64,000 nucleotides of DNA from Steroidobacteraceae bacterium (GCA_036499585.1 DASYDM010000004.1:264361-328360), one strand, 5' to 3'. Numbered from the stretch's first letter, positions 31,735 to 41,329 are shown. Numbers and translations are program-made. The notes: a model not told the origin generated them from the letters alone.

Positions 31735-31854
31735 TCGTGGCCTCGTTTCGGTGTGGGAGCGTAGCCGGGCGGCTACGCCGTTCGAATTCCCCAACGTAAT
31801 GAAGACGTTGCAACGTTGAATTCTTGCATATATCTGCCTTATCTTACACCTGTT

Positions 31855-32529
31855 ATGCATGGGATCGATCTAGAGCGCGCCGACCACGGACATCAGGAGG
31901 ACCTGCGCATCGTCGCCAGCAAAGCGACTCGCGGGCTCTCCCAGCTCGTCCTGCGCACCGATGTGGCTGGAATGCCGCTCGAGTGGATCGATTACAAGGA
32001 AGCCGCACGCCTGTATCACCAGGAACAGGTGGCATACACCTGCGGCTCGATGCTTTACCGGCTGTATGGCGGGGTGAACGCCCTGACGGGTCGACGCACG
32101 ATCCTCGAGGTCAACTCGATCGTCGCGACCGTTGGGCACACTGGAAATCCCGGTAATACGCGCCACGACTACGTGCCGCCCCTGAACAATCAGACACTCT
32201 TCAGACGGGACGCGTACCTGTGCATGTACTGCGCGCTGCGGTTCGCCTCGAGAGACCTGTCTCGCGATCACATCAGACCCTTCAGTCAGGGCGGCATCGA
32301 TGTCTGGACCAATGTCGTGACGGCCTGCCGACGCTGCAACAATCGGAAGGCTTCACGGACACCCGAGCAGGCGAAGATGCAACTCATCGCGGTGCCGTTC
32401 ACGCCGACCTACGCGGAGTACATTTTCCTCAAAGGCCGCCGGGTGCTGGCGGACCAGATGGAGTACCTCCTGGCTCACTTCCCGCGGACGAGTCCCTTGC
32501 ACGACCGCATTCAACGCTGGCTGTCGTGA
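31855..32529 (+). CDS. HNH endonuclease family protein
   Basis: HNH core CMYCALRF...LSRDHIRPFSQGGIDVWTNVVTACRRCNNRK. The start is uncertain (ATG 31855 chosen; track start is 31816). Confidence 0.72.
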   Translation: MHGIDLERADHGHQEDLRIVASKATRGLSQLVLRTDVAGMPLEWIDYKEAARLYHQEQVAYTCGSMLYRLYGGVNALTGRRTILEVNSIVATVGHTGNPGNTRHDYVPPLNNQTLFRRDAYLCMYCALRFASRDLSRDHIRPFSQGGIDVWTNVVTACRRCNNRKASRTPEQAKMQLIAVPFTPTYAEYIFLKGRRVLADQMEYLLAHFPRTSPLHDRIQRWLS

Positions 32530-33516: not shown

Positions 33517-34152
33517 CTAAGGCTTCTGTCCTGTCACGCAGCCCAGCGGCTCGCTCGTGCCGTCGGCGCTCTGCGCTTCCAGATGCACCGCCCGGCCGGC
33601 CAAGGCCTGGACTTCGATCTGCAGCAGGCGGCTGCCGTCCGGCTGCACGCTCACGGAGTAAGCGCCCTCGGGCAGTTCCTTGTGATCCGAGTTCAACGCC
33701 AGCAGCGCGCTGCTCCCGGTGATACCGCCCAAGCGGACCACTGCGTCCGTCGTGCGGGGAGCCAGCTTGATCGCCTGACACTCTTCTGCACCGCGCGTCA
33801 GGTTCAGCGGCATGTTGAAGAACACGGTTCCACCGTCAGAGATGGCGGGATGCGTCGTGCTATGACCGAGCCATCCGCCGGCCGCGCCGACGCTTGTGGC
33901 GAGCAGGACCGAGGCTGCCAGCCGCCATGCGGGTGCCTGTCGGGACCGCGCCGGGACGTTGGCCGCGGGCGTGACCAGGCGCCGCACCTTCGCGGGCATG
34001 TTGATCTTGATTGCGCGCCAGGTCTCGACGTCCTCCACACATTCCGGGCAAGCCATCATGTGCATCTCGAACGCTTCCTGCGTGGGGCCGTCGAGTCCAT
34101 CTGCCACGTAAACGGCCGCCGTCTGATTTGCCTTGAACTGTGAATGATCCAT
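33517..34152 (-). CDS. zf-HC2 anti-sigma factor with one TM and a periplasmic C-terminal domain
   Basis: Start at MDHSQFKAN (ATG 34152, GGGAGA SD), 9 nt after the sigma stop. H-x3-C-x2-C motif HMMACPEC. TM segment WRLAASVLLATSVGAAGGWLG. The ~110-aa C-terminal domain belongs to no family I recognise. Confidence 0.75.
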   Translation of the reverse strand: MDHSQFKANQTAAVYVADGLDGPTQEAFEMHMMACPECVEDVETWRAIKINMPAKVRRLVTPAANVPARSRQAPAWRLAASVLLATSVGAAGGWLGHSTTHPAISDGGTVFFNMPLNLTRGAEECQAIKLAPRTTDAVVRLGGITGSSALLALNSDHKELPEGAYSVSVQPDGSRLLQIEVQALAGRAVHLEAQSADGTSEPLGCVTGQKP

Positions 34153-34160
34153 GGTTCTCC

Positions 34161-34811
34161 CTATCCATGCGTCGACTGGGGTTCGCCCGAGTCGCCGTCG
34201 ATTGCGAGGCCGTTGCGGCGAAGGATGTCGCCGAAACGCTGCCGTGCGCGCCACAAGACCTGGTTGAATTGCATGTCCGTCAACTTCAAAGACTCACGAA
34301 TCGAAGTCCGCGGCTCTTCCTGCAGGTAGAACCGCTCGAGAACCTCCCGATCCCGCGGAACGGGGAGGTGGCCCATCAGATCGCGCACGCACTTTGCGAG
34401 CTGCTCATGATCCACTCGCTCCTCCAGGGACAATGCGTCGTCCTGTAGGTTGGAGAGCAGCTCCTTGTCGTTGTCGTGCTTACGCGAAAGCTCGCCACGC
34501 CAATAGGCCGTCGCCAGCTTGCACGCGGTCCGATAAAGGTATCCTCCGAGATTGCTCGGATCCTCCAACCCCTCTGCGCGGATCTTTTTGATCGCCTGCA
34601 GAAAGGTACGTTGCAACAGATCGTCCGCCGCATCCCGATCGATGCGCCTGTGGAGAAATACCTGCATCAAGGGGCGCCGATATCTCAGGTAGAGTTGGTC
34701 TTGCAGCGCACTTTGTTCGGCTACAGCTTCCACGAGCGACAAATCGCCCCGGTCGGCCCGGTCCAAGGCCTTGTCGGATGTCTCTCCCTGCGCTGTCTCG
34801 CTGTAGGTCAT
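34161..34811 (-). CDS. ECF-type RNA polymerase sigma factor (module 2)
   Basis: Region 2 (DAADDLLQRTFLQAIKKI...YLYRTACKLATAYWR) and region 4 (LPVPRDREVLERFYLQEEPRTSIRESLKLTDMQFNQVLWRARQRF). Confidence 0.85.
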   Translation of the reverse strand: MTYSETAQGETSDKALDRADRGDLSLVEAVAEQSALQDQLYLRYRRPLMQVFLHRRIDRDAADDLLQRTFLQAIKKIRAEGLEDPSNLGGYLYRTACKLATAYWRGELSRKHDNDKELLSNLQDDALSLEERVDHEQLAKCVRDLMGHLPVPRDREVLERFYLQEEPRTSIRESLKLTDMQFNQVLWRARQRFGDILRRNGLAIDGDSGEPQSTHG

Positions 34812-34842
34812 GGACGTTATCTGTTTGCGGCGTGATGTCGAT

Positions 34843-34868
34843 GACGTAGCAGCCGCACGTCTCTATTC
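34843..34868 (-). promoter_or_regulatory. Candidate ECF-type promoter upstream of the ECF sigma 2 gene (GAATAG-N16-CGTC)
   Basis: Minus strand reads GTGGAATAGAGACGTGCGGCTGCTACGTCAT, ending 31 nt before the ATG. The same GAATA-N16-CGTC architecture occurs upstream of the repeat-peptide gene. Confidence 0.35.
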
Positions 34869-35251
34869 CACGAACTCTTCGTTCAGCAATCTAGCATAGG
34901 GGCGACCGCGGCCGCTCCTGCGGGAATCCGAGATCAATTTGGATTAAGTCAAATAAAGGTCGGGAAAGTGTGGGAAGCGTGACCCGGGTCCAATAGGGGA
35001 GGCCCCCGCGGGGGTCCCTCGTTGCTGCATTGCACGGTGAGGGGTGCCCGAAGGGGTCTGGTCAGGGCGTTCGACGGCCCTGAAATCGAGTGGGCTCCCC
35101 CGGGACGGGCTGCGGCGCCCGCCGAGGGTAGTACCGGGATTACTCCATCAACGAAACGATACTCATCGGGCGTGCCGGTAGGAGTGTATCCACACCAAGT
35201 TCGACAACGCGGCGGGGGGGCGCGGGGTGCCCCCTAGCCCGTGTTCCGATG

Positions 35252-35269
35252 TGCCGTCGGACGACGGCA
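35252..35269 (-). terminator. Hairpin directly after the repeat-peptide stop
   Basis: TGCCGTC-GGAC-GACGGCA, a 7-bp perfect stem beginning 6 nt after the stop codon. No U-tract follows, so intrinsic termination is uncertain. Confidence 0.3.
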
Positions 35270-35274
35270 TCAAA

Positions 35275-35532
35275 TCAGTACTGACCGTGGATGACGCCGT
35301 CGTCATTCAACTTCAGATACTGACCGTGAATGACACCATCGTCATTCAACTTGAGATATTGGCCGTGGATGACGCCGTCGTCGGCCAGCTTCAGATACTG
35401 CCCGTGAATGACGCCGTCGTCGGTAAGTTGGTTTGCGGCAGACTGCTCAGCGGCACGGGCTTGACTGTTGGCGGCCATCGCAACGAGCGACAGTGAGGTG
35501 GCGAGCGCGAGCGTCAGGAATTTGCGGGACAT
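35275..35532 (-). CDS. Small secreted protein built from 4 tandem 13-aa repeats (DDGVIHGQYLKLx)
   Basis: 85 aa. GAGGAGA SD 6-7 nt upstream of the ATG. Signal peptide MSRKFLTLALATSLSLVAMAANSQA. The four repeats have an identical 12-aa core but multiple synonymous codon differences. Confidence 0.7.
   Translation of the reverse strand: MSRKFLTLALATSLSLVAMAANSQARAAEQSAANQLTDDGVIHGQYLKLADDGVIHGQYLKLNDDGVIHGQYLKLNDDGVIHGQY
35278..35421 (-). repeat. In-frame 39-bp tandem repeat (3.7 units) encoding DDGVIHGQYLKL(A/N)
   Basis: The units differ only at third-codon positions inside the core (Q CAG/CAA, G GGT/GGC/GGG, I ATC/ATT, D GAC/GAT, L CTG/CTC) and at the one linker codon (T/A/N/N). Confidence 0.9.
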
Positions 35533-35556
35533 GGAAATCTCCTCGAAGAGTGAATG

Positions 35557-35582
35557 GACGGATGAGCAATCCGCGGTTATTC
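35557..35582 (-). promoter_or_regulatory. Candidate ECF-type promoter upstream of the repeat-peptide gene (GAATAA-N16-CGTC)
   Basis: Minus strand reads GTGAATAACCGCGGATTGCTCATCCGTCCAT, with CGTC ending 24 nt before the ATG. It matches the motif and spacing found upstream of the ECF sigma 2 gene. Confidence 0.35.
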
Positions 35583-35642
35583 ACTGCTGCGAGGAGGCGA
35601 GTTATCTCAGAGCCCGCAGCGGGCTACGGACTTCGGCCCAGG

Positions 35643-38600
35643 TTACAGAAGCGTGTCGGGCGTTCCGTACAGGGCGAAGGCGGCCCACACGTGTGGCGAG
35701 TGCGTCCGCAAAGCATCGAGTTGGGCATGCCGCAGAGCCACTCCGGCACTCTGATGGTCAATCAGCAGATATCTGTAGAACGTCTGCATGAAATCCGCAG
35801 TGGCGTCGTCGTCGATCCGCCAATAGCTGGCCAGGACCGCGGCGGCGCCGGCCTCGAGAAAGGCCTGTGCGGGCCCGAGTACGCCCTCTCCGGGCAGCAG
35901 CTTCCCGCGTGAGGTGTCGCATGCGCTCAGCACAACCAGTTTCGAGTTGAGTCGCAGGCGCAGGATGTCGAGCAGCCCGAACGCCGAGGTGGCCGGAGTG
36001 TCCTTAGGGTCGGGCGTCAACGCCAAAGCCGACAGTCTGGGGCGCTGCGCGTCTACTCTGGCATGCGTGGCGATATGGAGGAGGTCCGGTCCTGCGCTCG
36101 CGGCAGCCTTCAGTCCACTGGCAACCGCGTTGCATCCCAGGAGAGTTTCGACGTGACTGAGTGGCCGCGCCTGGCGTGCCAACATCGCGACCATGGAAAT
36201 TTCGGCTCGCGAGCCGGGCAGTCGGGGCAGACTTTCGGTCCAGTCGGTCATCGTGCGCTCGGCATGTGCCGTTCGCGGTTCGGGGGCCGCGCTCTTCCCC
36301 TCGATGCACTCCCGACGCCAGTCGGCTACCCGGAATACCGGATCGCCGATGAGCTCGATGCGAGGCGCCGCCCGAGGTGTCTGCCGGGTCGCGGGCCGCG
36401 TGATGAACATGACCGCAGGGGCCACGGATGTTTCGAAGTGTTGCACGAGGAGATCCGTTGCCGAGTGGGTCCATGGCAAGACGGCGAACGGAATCGTGTG
36501 CAGGGCATCGTCGGGTACGAAAATCAGCCGGCGCGTTGCCAGACGGTCGCGTAGCGGCCATATGACAAGTCGAGCGAGCCGTTCGGACGCTTGACTGATG
36601 AGTGAGGGACGTGACTCCGGATCTCTCAGGACATCGCGGAGAGCCGTCGCGGCGTCCGTCACCGCGTCCCGGTCCCCGAGGCGCACGACATCTACACCTT
36701 TCGCACTGACGACAAACGCGAATAGGTTCTGCATGCCGACGGCGTATTCAACCGCGGTCGCTTCGAGCCGCCCCAGCGTCTGCGTCAGTGCGTCGCGCTC
36801 GATCGTCTGGATCGGTGTGCCGATGGTCTGATGGCTCGCTACTTCCCCCAGCCGCCGTACCAATTCGTCGGAGGCAGACACGGGAATGCCTTGCAGGGCC
36901 ACGATGTCCTGTACGTATTTTCCGTATGCGCCCTCCGAAACGGTCGCTTCAGCCGCTGCGTCCCGGGCCTGCTGCGACTCCGCGAATCGCAGGCTTCGAG
37001 CCCGTCCCCGTTCCGAAGTCTCGAACGCCTGCCAGGCGGACCCCTTGCCTAGGCTGGCCTGCGTAGCCAGGAGGTCGGTCAACTGCGCGAACGCTTCGTG
37101 TTGGGTCGCGAGGAAGGTGGCGCGCTTCTCACCATCGAGCTCGTCGATTGGTACGGCTTCCGCAACACGCTCGGCGACTTCCAGTGCGCGTCCGGCCTCG
37201 TCGGGTCGCCGGGTGTTTGCGGAGGCAACGAGGCGCAACGAGGTAACCGTCTGCTCGACGTCGCCACGCGCCACACTCGAATGCAGGGCCTCGTTCGCAT
37301 CCTGCAGCGCGCGAGTTTCGTTTTTGGCCAGAAGCTCTGATCTCACCAGGCCCAGCTGGGCGGTACCGCGCCGCCCGTTTCCCGCAGGAATGTTGGCGCG
37401 GTCAGCTATTCGCAGCGCCTTGTCGAAAGAAGACCGCGCAGCGGCCGGCTTGCCTTTGACCAGGAAGCCGTCGCCCTCCGCGGATGCGAGCTTCATCTGC
37501 GTGCGGGTGTCAGTGGCGTAGGGGCGGGCGGCGTTCAGGCAGCGTTGGGACTGAACGGTCTCGCCCTCGAACCCCAGAGTATCGTGCAGCCAGTAAAGGG
37601 CATCGAAGACAGTCGCGAGGTTGTCCGCGCCGAGCATGCCTGGGTCGATGGGTTCGGCGCACAGATCCGCCCGGTTGTTATCCAGGTTGGGGGTGCCGCT
37701 CGCGACTTCGGGCGTCGTTTCGGGTGACCCGGGCGTGGGGAGCGAGGCGACGGCGTAGTTCATGAGTGCCGGGCAATCGAGCGAGGCGGCGTTCTGCAGC
37801 GCCCCTTCCGCATCCGCCAGTTCGCCGATCTGTGACAGCACGGCCCCGATGCGAGCCAGGCTCCGGCGCACCCCGGAGCAATCACCGATCCGAGCGTACG
37901 CCCGCATCGCCTCCGTATAGCTGCGCTGACTTTCGCTGAACAACCCGACCCGGGCCTGCACCCTGCCGAGATTGTTGCGGATGTCGGCCACCAGTCGCGC
38001 GTAACGCCGGGAATCCAGACGCCGCAGGGCTTCGCCGTACACCGCCAGGGCTTGTGAGAAATGGCCGTTTTCCTCTGCCAGCACCGCCAGGTTCTGACTG
38101 CCGGTCCCGTAGCACTCCCAATCGCCCAACTGCGCGCAGCGACGCGACGCTTGCGCAAACAGGGGCTGCGCTTTGGCGGCGGCGTCCAGCTTATATTCAA
38201 GGAGTCCGGTCACGAGGTCGAGGCGTGGGAGCTCGCGTGTTGACGCGGGGCCATCCGCCCACACCTGTCTTGCCGCCGCCAACCGCTCTCGGATCCGCGG
38301 TTCGATTGCGGGCAGACCGTCGCGATCCTCCGGCATATCGATCAACGACTTCGCTTGGAGCGCAGCCAGCGCTCCCATGGCGGCCGCGTCGGTCGTTGGC
38401 GAGTAGTCGTCCATTGCCTGGGCGGACAGGGCGTAGGCATCGCGCTTGTGGTCGAAGCGACGGTACGCAAGCTCCGCCATGGCGTGCCTCGCACGGCCTG
38501 CGGGTTCTCTCAACCCTAGTTGGTCGAAGACGCGTGCCGCACGCAGATAGCTGGCGAAGGCCGCTTCCCAGTCAGTCGTCTGGACTGCTATCCCAGCGTC

Positions 38601-39074
38601 CGCGAAGTCCCTCGCGGGTCGTTCCATCGGGGAGTGCGGAGGAAGGACTCGGGCGGCAACGCAGACTTGTCCTTGGACATCGCGGGAGTCTTCGGAGCGG
38701 ATGTGGACGGTGGCCGTCTCACCGGGTCTGGTGTCGCTCACCAGCGCGATGGTTCCCAATCGGTCCACCGGCGACGCGCCTGACCGCGCGATTGTTGGCC
38801 CCAGCGCCGCCGTCGGAGACCCCGGCGTGGCCACGCCCGCCGGCGCCGAACTTTGACGTCCTAACGAGGCGGACACCGCGATGCCTCGTTCCTCGAGCGT
38901 CACCACGAGAGTGCCGCCGGGTGAGCGAATCGGCACGGAAGCCGGCGTCTCACCGCCGACCGAAAGACATTTCTGCTCGAATATCGGCGGCGGAATTTCG
39001 GTCCCACAGGAGCTGAGCAGCGCGACGCAAAACGCGAGCGCCCAATAGCCCACTGCCCGTGAATGACTCTTCAT
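35643..39074 (-). CDS. TPR-repeat CHAT-domain (caspase-like, clan CD) lipoprotein
   Basis: 1143 aa. Lipoprotein signal [23 protein letters not shown]. Central TPR-like helical repeats. C-terminal CHAT domain with candidate catalytic His (LLHIATHA) and Cys ([11 protein letters not shown]). Confidence 0.85.
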
Positions 39075-39160
39075 GCCGACGGTCTTTGCCTATGCACCTG
39101 TGGCGCTACAGCTACGGTATGCTGCCAGTGCGCTCCGATCCAAGTCTGCGAGGGGACGAC

Positions 39161-41329
<2,169 letters not shown>

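Follow-up and report, generated by a model that had tools for sequence, protein, structure and literature searches.

A TPR-CHAT lipoprotein gene beside an ECF sigma/anti-sigma pair in Steroidobacteraceae-like bacteria: a reduced form of a predicted five-gene envelope module

Introduction

On the account given in PMC11506125, proteases that combine tetratricopeptide repeats (TPR) with a CHAT domain have recently been tied to extracytoplasmic function (ECF) sigma/anti-sigma control in two defence contexts, craspase and DdvA. In craspase, the TPR-CHAT protein Csx29 together with Cas7-11 cleaves Csx30, as part of a pathway that involves a putative anti-sigma factor (PMC10028731 and PMC9825189, as summarised in PMC11506125). 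DdvA is a periplasmic TPR-CHAT protein fused to a zinc-finger anti-sigma factor; it blocks RseP, its catalytic dyad consists of H862 and C907, and a site-1-protease-like role has been proposed for it (PMC11506125). The DdvA signal and the cleavage step remain unproven. Here we analyse a block of four genes at positions 33517-39074 of a 64-kb stretch of DNA with 64% GC (the window) from Steroidobacteraceae bacterium (GCA_036499585.1 DASYDM010000004.1:264361-328360). It represents a simpler modular arrangement, with a separate protease, a small anti-sigma factor and a short peptide motif, which is spread family-wide in soil bacteria. The authors of a preliminary description of this DNA knew of no characterised system with such a composition; there are in fact two precedents, DdvA-DdvS (PMC11506125) and craspase Csx29 (PMC10028731, via PMC11506125).

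As with DdvA-DdvS, the locus specifies a TPR-CHAT protein with a His/Cys dyad, predicted to face the periplasm and tied to a zinc-finger anti-sigma factor and an ECF sigma factor. The TPR-CHAT protein is here, however, a separate lipoprotein of 1143 amino acids (aa), and the anti-sigma factor is a protein of 211 aa with an immunoglobulin (Ig)-like domain of ~100 aa. Moreover, DdvA controls a CBASS/CRISPR island, none of which lies near this locus, and the present module, from a different phylum, has extra conserved partners: a protein designated Y plus an S8-family subtilase or, in reduced loci, a tail peptide. Because protease and anti-sigma factor do not form a single polypeptide, the locus does not belong to the DdvA family and is only a possible functional analogue. 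What it has in common with craspase, as that system is summarised in PMC11506125, is a TPR-CHAT caspase-like protease, the proteolysis of which acts, or here would act, on a pathway that involves a putative anti-sigma factor. Craspase is, however, cytoplasmic, RNA-guided and CRISPR-associated, and the window locus contains no cas genes. The Csx29 model NF041237 scored 17.4 bits on the CHAT protein against a cut-off of 300, and the locus is not craspase.

Regulated proteolysis of anti-sigma factors is also the basis of the RseA/DegS/RseP and MucA/AlgW/MucE systems, in which YxF and WVF serve as C-terminal signals. The window anti-sigma factor resembles RseA and MucA in being single-pass with a small periplasmic domain, and here too a secreted motif could trigger a site-1 protease. 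There is, however, no PDZ serine protease in the window block, where the candidate is a clan-CD cysteine protease, and the Y tail is conserved in an internal stretch (LDDDGVIH), with variable terminal residues. Yeast alpha-factor is made as a multi-copy secreted precursor which is processed by a subtilase/kexin-type protease. By analogy, the window peptide has a signal peptide followed by four 13-residue units, and the ancestral locus includes a subtilase. Unlike such precursors, it has no conserved dibasic or other cleavage site between the units, the subtilase is absent exactly where the repeats exist, and relatives carry a single motif copy which ends a folded protein.

Our literature searches found no description of a TPR-CHAT lipoprotein with Y, S8, an ECF sigma factor and an anti-sigma factor, and those combining CHAT with ECF, subtilisin or lipoprotein returned the DdvA and craspase papers only. 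The main text of the ECF reclassification paper mentions neither CHAT nor subtilisin.

Gene content of the window block and its orthologues

The block consists of four co-oriented ORFs (open reading frames), as had been described:

33517-34152, minus strand: anti-sigma factor, 211 aa (zf-HC2; homologue alignment; AlphaFold2 (AF2) model)
34161-34811, minus strand: ECF sigma factor, 216 aa (Pfam Sigma70_r2, NCBIfam TIGR02937)
35275-35532, minus strand: mini-gene for a secreted peptide, 85 aa (Tandem Repeats Finder (TRF); tblastn to Y; DNA identity to locus L031; pN/pS, the ratio of the proportions of non-synonymous and synonymous differences)
35643-39074, minus strand: TPR-CHAT lipoprotein, 1143 aa (Pfam CHAT and TPR_12; conserved lipobox; catalytic dyad; pN/pS)

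JGI and Logan assemblies made independently (L001, L002) have the same arrangement and the same sequence, and ~90%-identical versions of the block occur in two ENA metagenome assemblies (L029, L030), so that it is no assembly artefact.

Orthologues were retrieved by alignment of anti-sigma homologues, which gave 26 loci from GTDB genomes, all of them Steroidobacteraceae-like metagenome-assembled genomes. Further full loci (L034-L040) were recovered by a metagenome scan with a CHAT-domain alignment, and the comparison set comprised ~35 orthologous loci, namely the 26 genome loci plus L031-L040. All 26 GTDB loci are one and the same locus, flanked by genes for acetyl-CoA synthetase (acs) and a 5'-3' exonuclease (exo), and the CHAT gene lies upstream of the sigma and anti-sigma genes in every one of them with sufficient upstream sequence. 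The preliminary description had staked its proposal on the linkage not being private to one genome. Across the orthologous set the CHAT, sigma and anti-sigma genes adjoin wherever there is enough sequence; the catalytic residues and the small ORF, on which the proposal had likewise been made to depend, also held up (see below), and none of its sequence-based grounds for withdrawal arose.

The distance between the CHAT and sigma genes is ~2 kb in the GTDB relatives versus 0.83 kb in the window. In the relatives the order is CHAT, Y, S8 subtilase, sigma, anti-sigma, as in L031, the closest relative with the full architecture (anti-sigma 63% identical). Comparison of the loci shows the window block to be a reduced form of this five-gene module of Steroidobacteraceae-like bacteria, which is predicted to act at the envelope. 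The earlier four-gene picture was therefore incomplete, in that the ancestral module includes a second protease, the S8 subtilase, which has been deleted in the window.

Proteins Y and S8 of the full module

Y is a signal-peptide protein of 190-198 aa (~195) ending in ...LDDDGVIHxQ, with a mature domain of ~170 aa containing two invariant Cys residues. It belongs to no family in Pfam or NCBIfam. An exhaustive profile search of 1.84 billion representatives yielded no more than 35 clusters (50% identity), from which it follows that Y is a lineage-restricted orphan. Of 120 Y homologues, 89 have the motif LDD[DN]GV[IL]. In an AF2 model of moderate confidence, residues 183-191 of the tail had a predicted local distance difference test (pLDDT) score below 50, which suggests that the tail is flexible; Foldseek found no significant structural neighbour of the model in the PDB. 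A sortase-like C-terminal sorting signal was considered for the tail and rejected, since the motif is not followed by a transmembrane or basic segment, and PDZ-type recognition of the C-terminus was judged unlikely in view of its variable final residues. The tail (LDDDGVIH) and GVDDDGNGYVDD in the S8 of relatives (e.g. L006, 6143-7342) resemble calcium-binding loops of the DxDxDG type.

S8 is a secreted Peptidase_S8 subtilase of ~400 aa (Pfam ~1e-17) which retains the D, H and S motifs (FDDG, SHGT, GSSNS) and resembles mycosin, QhpE and PatA only far below the cut-offs of these models. Its ORF overlaps the start of the sigma gene in relatives, which points to a single operon.

The interval occupied by Y and S8 is prone to rearrangement, judging from tandem duplications of Y at L014 (2300-7336). 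There the gap is 5 kb instead of 2 kb and holds at least two tandem Y copies; every copy has a separate leader, and pieces of the S8 5' end are interspersed among them. In another homologue of Y (P0251, 290 aa) the tail is extended by other repeats, NDNGVVY LDDNGVIS GNGVVG ..., and then by three GIGGSxGIGGPxEGGGVVQV units; these being different repeats, the Y tail appears to have been expanded into repeats more than once.

Origin of the four-repeat peptide and loss of Y and S8

The course of the reduction can be traced through the following elements, all within or next to the spacer between the peptide and sigma genes or in the leader of the mini-gene:

35581-35609, minus strand: P1, a promoter-like element (TGAGATAAc-N13-GCAGTGA; one site per locus)
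35558-35574, minus strand: stem-loop of the 5' untranslated region (UTR), GCGGAT-loop-ATCCGT, between P1 and the ribosome-binding site
35260-35304, minus strand: inverted repeat spanning the stop codon of the peptide gene (13 nt, 92% complementary, 19 nt apart)
35000-35250, minus strand: fast-evolving middle of the spacer, site of the Y-core/S8 deletion (indels versus L029)
34835-34899, minus strand: remnant of the S8 3' end carrying P2, a second promoter-like element (alignment to L031; conserved P2 motif)

The preliminary description had reported an 85-aa secreted peptide made of four repeats, and the ORF, the signal peptide and the repeats are all real. A Y-type signal peptide (aa 1-27), ending in A-R-A, precedes a predicted mature peptide of 58 aa, in which a short linker leads into L-x-DDGVIHGQY(LK), present four times, the underlying 39-bp unit being repeated 3.8 times (TRF score 203). 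The peptide is identical to the NCBI hypothetical protein VGM84_01355 (Steroidobacteraceae bacterium) and finds nothing in Pfam or NCBIfam; only two database clusters carry it. It is not, as had been supposed, a component of the module in its own right. By tblastn, its residues 1-30 match the Y protein of L003 at 57% identity (E 4e-4), and residues 180-191 of that Y, the tail, are matched four times in the peptide at 75-91%. In agreement, the DNA of the promoter region, 5' UTR and signal-peptide codons is 79% identical to L031 over 162 nt, and each repeat is 80-86% identical to the 3' end of the L031 Y gene. The peptide is thus, by these protein and DNA matches, the Y signal peptide joined to the Y C-terminal tail amplified four times, a lineage-specific derivative and not a full Y member.

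These alignments show that a deletion in the window lineage removed the globular core of Y and nearly all of S8, of which only a ~65-nt remnant of the 3' end is recognisable. The putative P1, the 5' hairpin, the signal peptide, the Y tail and P2 were spared, and the tail was then amplified to its four copies. The reduced layout is common to the window, L029 and L030 (anti-sigma 93% identical), the peptide having 86 aa in the latter two, and no other copy of Y or S8 is present within the window.

Because of its origin by deletion in a spot prone to rearrangement, as illustrated by the tandem Y genes of L014 and the other tail repeats of P0251, and its occurrence in just two database clusters, the small ORF could be a non-functional leftover whose repeats are replication-slippage debris. 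We consider this highly improbable. Between the window and L029 the ORF has a pS of 0.26 and a pN of 0.023 (pN/pS 0.09), selection which also answers the earlier question of whether the ORF is protein-coding. When the four internal repeats are compared with one another in all six pairs, the differences add up to 30 synonymous versus 9 non-synonymous (pS 0.72, pN 0.058), and no repeat departs from the others in its DDGVIHGQY core. Since the synonymous sites of the repeats have diverged while the protein was kept, the amplification is old and its amino-acid sequence held by selection. Furthermore, the promoter, hairpin, ribosome-binding site and signal peptide are intact and ~93% identical to L029, beside a spacer which has decayed. 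On these values the mini-gene is under strong purifying selection, a real gene and not debris. The other genes of the block behave alike, with pN/pS values of 0.16 for CHAT (versus L030), 0.025 for sigma and 0.12 for anti-sigma; the neighbouring exonuclease gives 0.15, so that CHAT, sigma and anti-sigma are similarly constrained. All four remaining genes of the window block are thus shown by these ratios to be under purifying selection, and the locus offers a clean example of the birth of a mini-protein gene by deletion and tandem amplification of a tail, followed by purifying selection.

A signal peptide preceding four near-identical 13-aa units, conserved as protein with synonymous divergence, next to a gene for a protease with an intact dyad, also recalls a pheromone-like precursor. 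The CHAT protein might cut the exported precursor into 13-residue diffusible signals which are sensed via the anti-sigma factor, and the S8 of relatives is weakly similar, far below cut-offs, to the peptide-maturation subtilases QhpE and PatA. This seems very unlikely to us: in almost all relatives the motif is single and ends a folded protein of ~170 aa, its flanks do not form a conserved site for cleavage (L-D-D may be preceded by Q, K, R, S or V), exporter or modification genes are absent from the locus, and the replacement peptide of L039, described below, has no repeats.

L039, a deep outgroup, occupies the same place between acs and exo (CHAT 39-46%, anti-sigma 31-39% and exonuclease 59-64% identical to the others). 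Its order is CHAT, a signal-peptide ORF of 62 aa, sigma and anti-sigma, without the Y core or S8; a P1-like site and P2 are retained, and the 62-aa peptide is free of repeats. As P2 is part of the S8 coding sequence in full loci, the reduced state is most simply taken as derived, with loss having happened twice, once in the window lineage and once in L039. CHAT was kept in both reduced lineages, its purifying selection having been measured in the window clade. These two natural deletions distinguish the parts that can be lost (Y core, S8) from those that are retained.

The joint loss of the Y core and S8 on two occasions would also be expected if Y were a trans-acting chaperone or inhibitor of S8 with its tail in the substrate cleft, the amplified tail of the window then being a multivalent pseudo-substrate or inhibitor of CHAT or of another subtilase encoded elsewhere in the genome. 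Y and S8 are adjacent, and predicted to be co-transcribed, in all full loci; only ~50 residues separate the S8 signal peptide from its catalytic domain, leaving no room for a classical N-terminal propeptide; and the Y tail, modelled at low confidence, is probably flexible. We regard such a role as quite unlikely, however, because the tail was kept and amplified after S8 had been lost, with no second S8 or Y in the window, and because no resemblance of Y to inhibitor or propeptide folds could be detected.

The TPR-CHAT lipoprotein

The protein consists of a signal peptide with lipobox LLSSC, a beta-rich N-terminal region, TPR repeats (Pfam TPR_12, 3.4e-11) and a C-terminal CHAT domain (Pfam PF12770, 3.5e-57, 194.5 bits with a cut-off of 24; aa 829-1137, profile positions 3-288 of 289). 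Gene callers differ on its start, giving 945, 982 or 1143 aa. The alignment of the orthologues to the window protein begins near residue 7-30, and nearly all of 17 of them have a lipobox (L-x-[GAS]-C) at the equivalent place. The long lipoprotein form is, on this alignment, the correct one, and the call of a 1143-aa TPR-CHAT lipoprotein made previously is borne out.

The motifs LLHIATH[AG] (His) and VVLSAC[DE]TS (Cys) are invariant across the 17 orthologues. While phmmer with the CHAT protein matched no PDB sequence, a profile of the orthologues, through which alone DdvA and Csx29 were reached, had as its best PDB match DdvA of M. xanthus (8rot_B, E 1.8e-4). The His and Cys, which had been proposed as catalytic on inspection of HIATHA and LSACDT, align exactly with the catalytic H862 and C907 of DdvA and are in register with the Csx29 motifs also. 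In fold and dyad the protein corresponds to a caspase-like peptidase of clan CD, and proteolytic activity is predicted. In the orthologue of L018 a GPDVGV-repeat insertion (GPHPGVGPDVGVGPDVGVGPDVGVGPGVGPGSG, ~2360-2540) lies between the N-terminal region and the TPRs.

The ECF sigma and anti-sigma factors

The sigma factor passes the curated ECF model sigma70-ECF (NCBIfam TIGR02937, 53.4 bits with a cut-off of 42.9, aa 37-192), in line with its earlier assignment, as well as Pfam Sigma70_r2 (27.6 bits, cut-off 24). It attains the cut-off of no ECF subgroup model, and phmmer found no match among PDB sequences. Its identity across orthologous loci is 60-84%.

The anti-sigma gene follows immediately downstream, an order kept in all orthologous loci; its ATG, at 34152, is preceded by GGAG and lies 8 nt past the sigma stop codon. 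The zf-HC2 domain, the transmembrane (TM) helix and the periplasmic topology put forward earlier were upheld, and the start was moved from 34254 (245 aa) to 34152 (211 aa). The zf-HC2 match (Pfam, 22.7 bits, cut-off 22.2) is cytoplasmic and forms three helices in the AF2 model, and the zinc motif (H31, C35, C38) is invariant in 25 homologues; homologues number >306. After the single TM helix comes a periplasmic domain (aa ~109-209) with invariant Cys125 and Cys205. No family had been recognised for this domain, and structure prediction had been recommended: the AF2 model is an Ig-like beta-sandwich (pLDDT ~90 for aa 130-209), for which Foldseek returned generic Ig-domain matches only and no specific relative. 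A profile of the anti-sigma factor gave only a marginal match to the RslA-like zinc motif in the PDB. The protein is classified as a transmembrane anti-sigma factor of the zf-HC2 (ZAS) type, and binding and release of sigma are predicted.

Promoter-like elements and the spacer

Each locus has a single P1 (TGAGATAAG-N13-GCAGTGA), ~55-65 nt ahead of the start of Y or the peptide, and a variant with the same spacing is found in L039. When the window and loci L001-L032 were scanned with a position weight matrix built from 19 sites, no other site exceeded 12 bits, and there was no P1-like site upstream of CHAT. From its shape, position and conservation we infer that P1 is a candidate sigma-dependent promoter of the peptide gene and, in relatives, of the Y operon. 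Downstream of P1, 19 of the 21 leaders (L003-L031 and the window) are predicted to form a hairpin, always at one position. Since this position is kept while the stems differ in sequence (GTGCGG/CCGCAC, GGGCGATC/GATCCCC, GCGGAT/ATCCGT), a constraint on the 5' UTR at the level of structure is suggested.

The spacer between the peptide and sigma genes measures exactly 463 bp (34812-35274), as reported. Its middle is poorly conserved and rich in indels relative to L029, both flanks being ~90% identical, and has no DNA similarity to S8-carrying loci. P2 appears in the window as an extended -10-like sequence, TGCTAGATT, at 34888-34896. Its consensus, CTATG[CA]TA[AG]ATT (TGnTAnATT), lies inside the 3' coding end of S8, where it encodes Y-A-K-L. 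The exact motif is 193-199 nt upstream of the sigma ATG in full loci (197 in 13 of 15 matches) and 70-86 nt upstream in the window, L029 and L039; it or a one-base variant is present at the same column in 22 of 23 aligned loci. The codons TAT-GCT-AAA-TTG are AT-rich synonymous choices in a genome of 64% GC, which argues for constraint at the nucleotide level. By shape, position and conservation P2 is a candidate housekeeping promoter. The S8 remnant was recognised via the P2 motif: the window matches L031 along ...CTATGCTAAATTGACGCCTGACGAGTTCGTGGAAAGAGTCGTGCGG... (L031 GAGTTCGTGGAAAGAGTCGTGCGG versus window GAGTTCGTGGAATAGAGACGTGCGG), and S8 residues ~336-363 gave weak recurring tblastn matches at this place, none of them significant.

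The peptide and sigma genes had been credited with a shared ECF promoter motif, GAATA-N16-CGTC. It does occur twice, at 35557-35582 and at 34843-34869 (GGAATAGAG...CGTC), but the two copies are of unlike origin and unconserved, and we reject it as a shared promoter. The peptide-side copy is the 3' arm of the leader hairpin, in which CGTC becomes CGCA in L029 and CGCC in L003 and L031; the sigma-side copy is what remains of the S8 codons EFVERVVRERM.

Immediately after the stop codon of the peptide gene come 13 nt that repeat, in inverted and complementary form, the DDGVI codons of the final repeat, so that a hairpin encloses the stop; it is kept in L029. A canonical terminator was rejected in the absence of a T-run, and the structure may be a scar of rearrangement or may stabilise or attenuate the mRNA. 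An Rfam search of the block gave nothing meaningful, and a scan for sigma-70 promoters and terminators yielded no promoter and terminator-like sites at chance level.

Linkage of CHAT and sigma beyond the locus, and a possible mechanism

Within the orthologous set the adjacency of CHAT and sigma persists to ~40% CHAT identity. A neighbourhood search for CHAT near ECF sigma genes, proposed in the preliminary description, bore out the association at all orthologous loci with enough sequence. Among 72 more distant CHAT loci (25-37% identity; 25 of them with at least 2.5 kb on both sides), an ECF sigma gene lay within 6 kb in only 2, the metagenome loci L045 and L071. In L045 (2-5045) the genes for sigma, anti-sigma and a CHAT lipoprotein are adjacent, and in L071 (3652-8670) the order is CHAT, a 124-aa ORF, sigma, anti-sigma. 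Neither is orthologous to the window locus or has acs/exo flanks, and their sigma factors are 31-36% identical to that of the window. Their CHAT domains are ~30-36% identical, and the anti-sigma-like protein is a single-pass membrane protein without the zinc-finger motif. L045 and L071 may be further members of a wider class combining CHAT with ECF sigma factors.

We regard the anatomy and evolution of the module as solid, and the following functional account, for uncultured bacteria, as inferred. The proteolysis-gated circuit suggested earlier is plausible. The explanation that we favour, tentatively and short of calling it probable, is that the reduced five-gene module signals in the manner of DdvA, with the functions of that protein split between a lipoprotein and a small anti-sigma factor. 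The TPR-CHAT protein would be made independently of P1 and face the periplasm, where it would act on or with the small anti-sigma factor, as a site-1 protease or as a signal receiver, and so control the release of sigma. P2 would provide basal expression of sigma and anti-sigma, and released sigma would fire P1. The P1 product, the essential part of which would be the tail motif, would feed back as a ligand or substrate of TPR-CHAT or of the anti-sigma Ig domain. The tail is the best candidate for a contact with either because the window lineage retained and amplified it; the Y core and S8, having been lost together twice, look dispensable and would form an output or accessory branch.

A narrower form of this proposal, which we think unlikely as it stands, would make the stand-alone TPR-CHAT protein the receptor or site-1 protease that serves a minimal anti-sigma factor, and the sigma-induced LxDDGVIH motif a dedicated ligand or substrate which closes a feedback loop. 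If true, it would define a new "split DdvA" class of envelope signalling, the minimal core of which (protease, tail motif, sigma, anti-sigma) would already have been mapped by the two independent losses.

Several points weigh against the split DdvA-type explanation. The 2 of 72 distant loci are close to the background rate, so that the association of CHAT with ECF sigma factors is not general. The strong linkage comes from one orthologous locus in one family, where inherited synteny could explain adjacency, and the housekeeping flanks acs and exo are conserved as much as the module. The window sigma factor and the N-terminus of the anti-sigma factor show no specific similarity to DdvS or DdvA, and the terminal residues of the Y tail differ between relatives, which speaks against recognition of a free C-terminus. 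P1 and P2 are promoter-like in shape and conservation only, and P1 is unlike GGAAC...CGTC, the common ECF promoter pattern.

Some of the same observations would fit an ordinary envelope-stress switch with Y and S8 as its regulon, in which CHAT is an unrelated syntenic neighbour and the mini-peptide has a new or residual non-signalling role. P1 fronts Y and S8 with no P1-like site before CHAT, synteny throughout the family, which takes in acs and exo as well, confounds the linkage, and 70 of the 72 distant CHAT loci have no ECF sigma gene nearby. In that event the locus would be an ordinary lineage-specific ECF operon with an unusual history of gene decay. We consider this possible, though on the unlikely side. 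Two independent deletions dropped the supposed outputs and left in place CHAT, sigma, anti-sigma and the gene for a secreted peptide with a P1 or P1-like site in front, and the genes of the window clade are under purifying selection. Adjacency of CHAT and ECF sigma recurs, in different gene order, at two non-orthologous loci, and DdvA provides a precedent for a TPR-CHAT protein tied to an anti-sigma factor (PMC11506125).

Neighbouring genes

PADLOC assigned the block to no defence system, giving only a weak BovA-like match on the CHAT domain, and the neighbourhood of the locus contains neither defence genes (CBASS/CRISPR) nor cas genes. The acetyl-CoA synthetase (39059-41329, plus strand) has a Lys/Arg/Ala-rich C-terminal tail of ~100 aa that resembles histone H1 or the basic repeats of AlgP. 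The tail is variable or absent in relatives, where tblastn matches end at about residue 640-690. A gene for an HNH endonuclease (~224-237 aa; 31816-32529, plus strand) lies directly upstream of the exonuclease gene, on the same strand. It is situated between the transhydrogenase genes and the module, and was found at the same place in L001, L029 and L031, i.e. in every locus examined.

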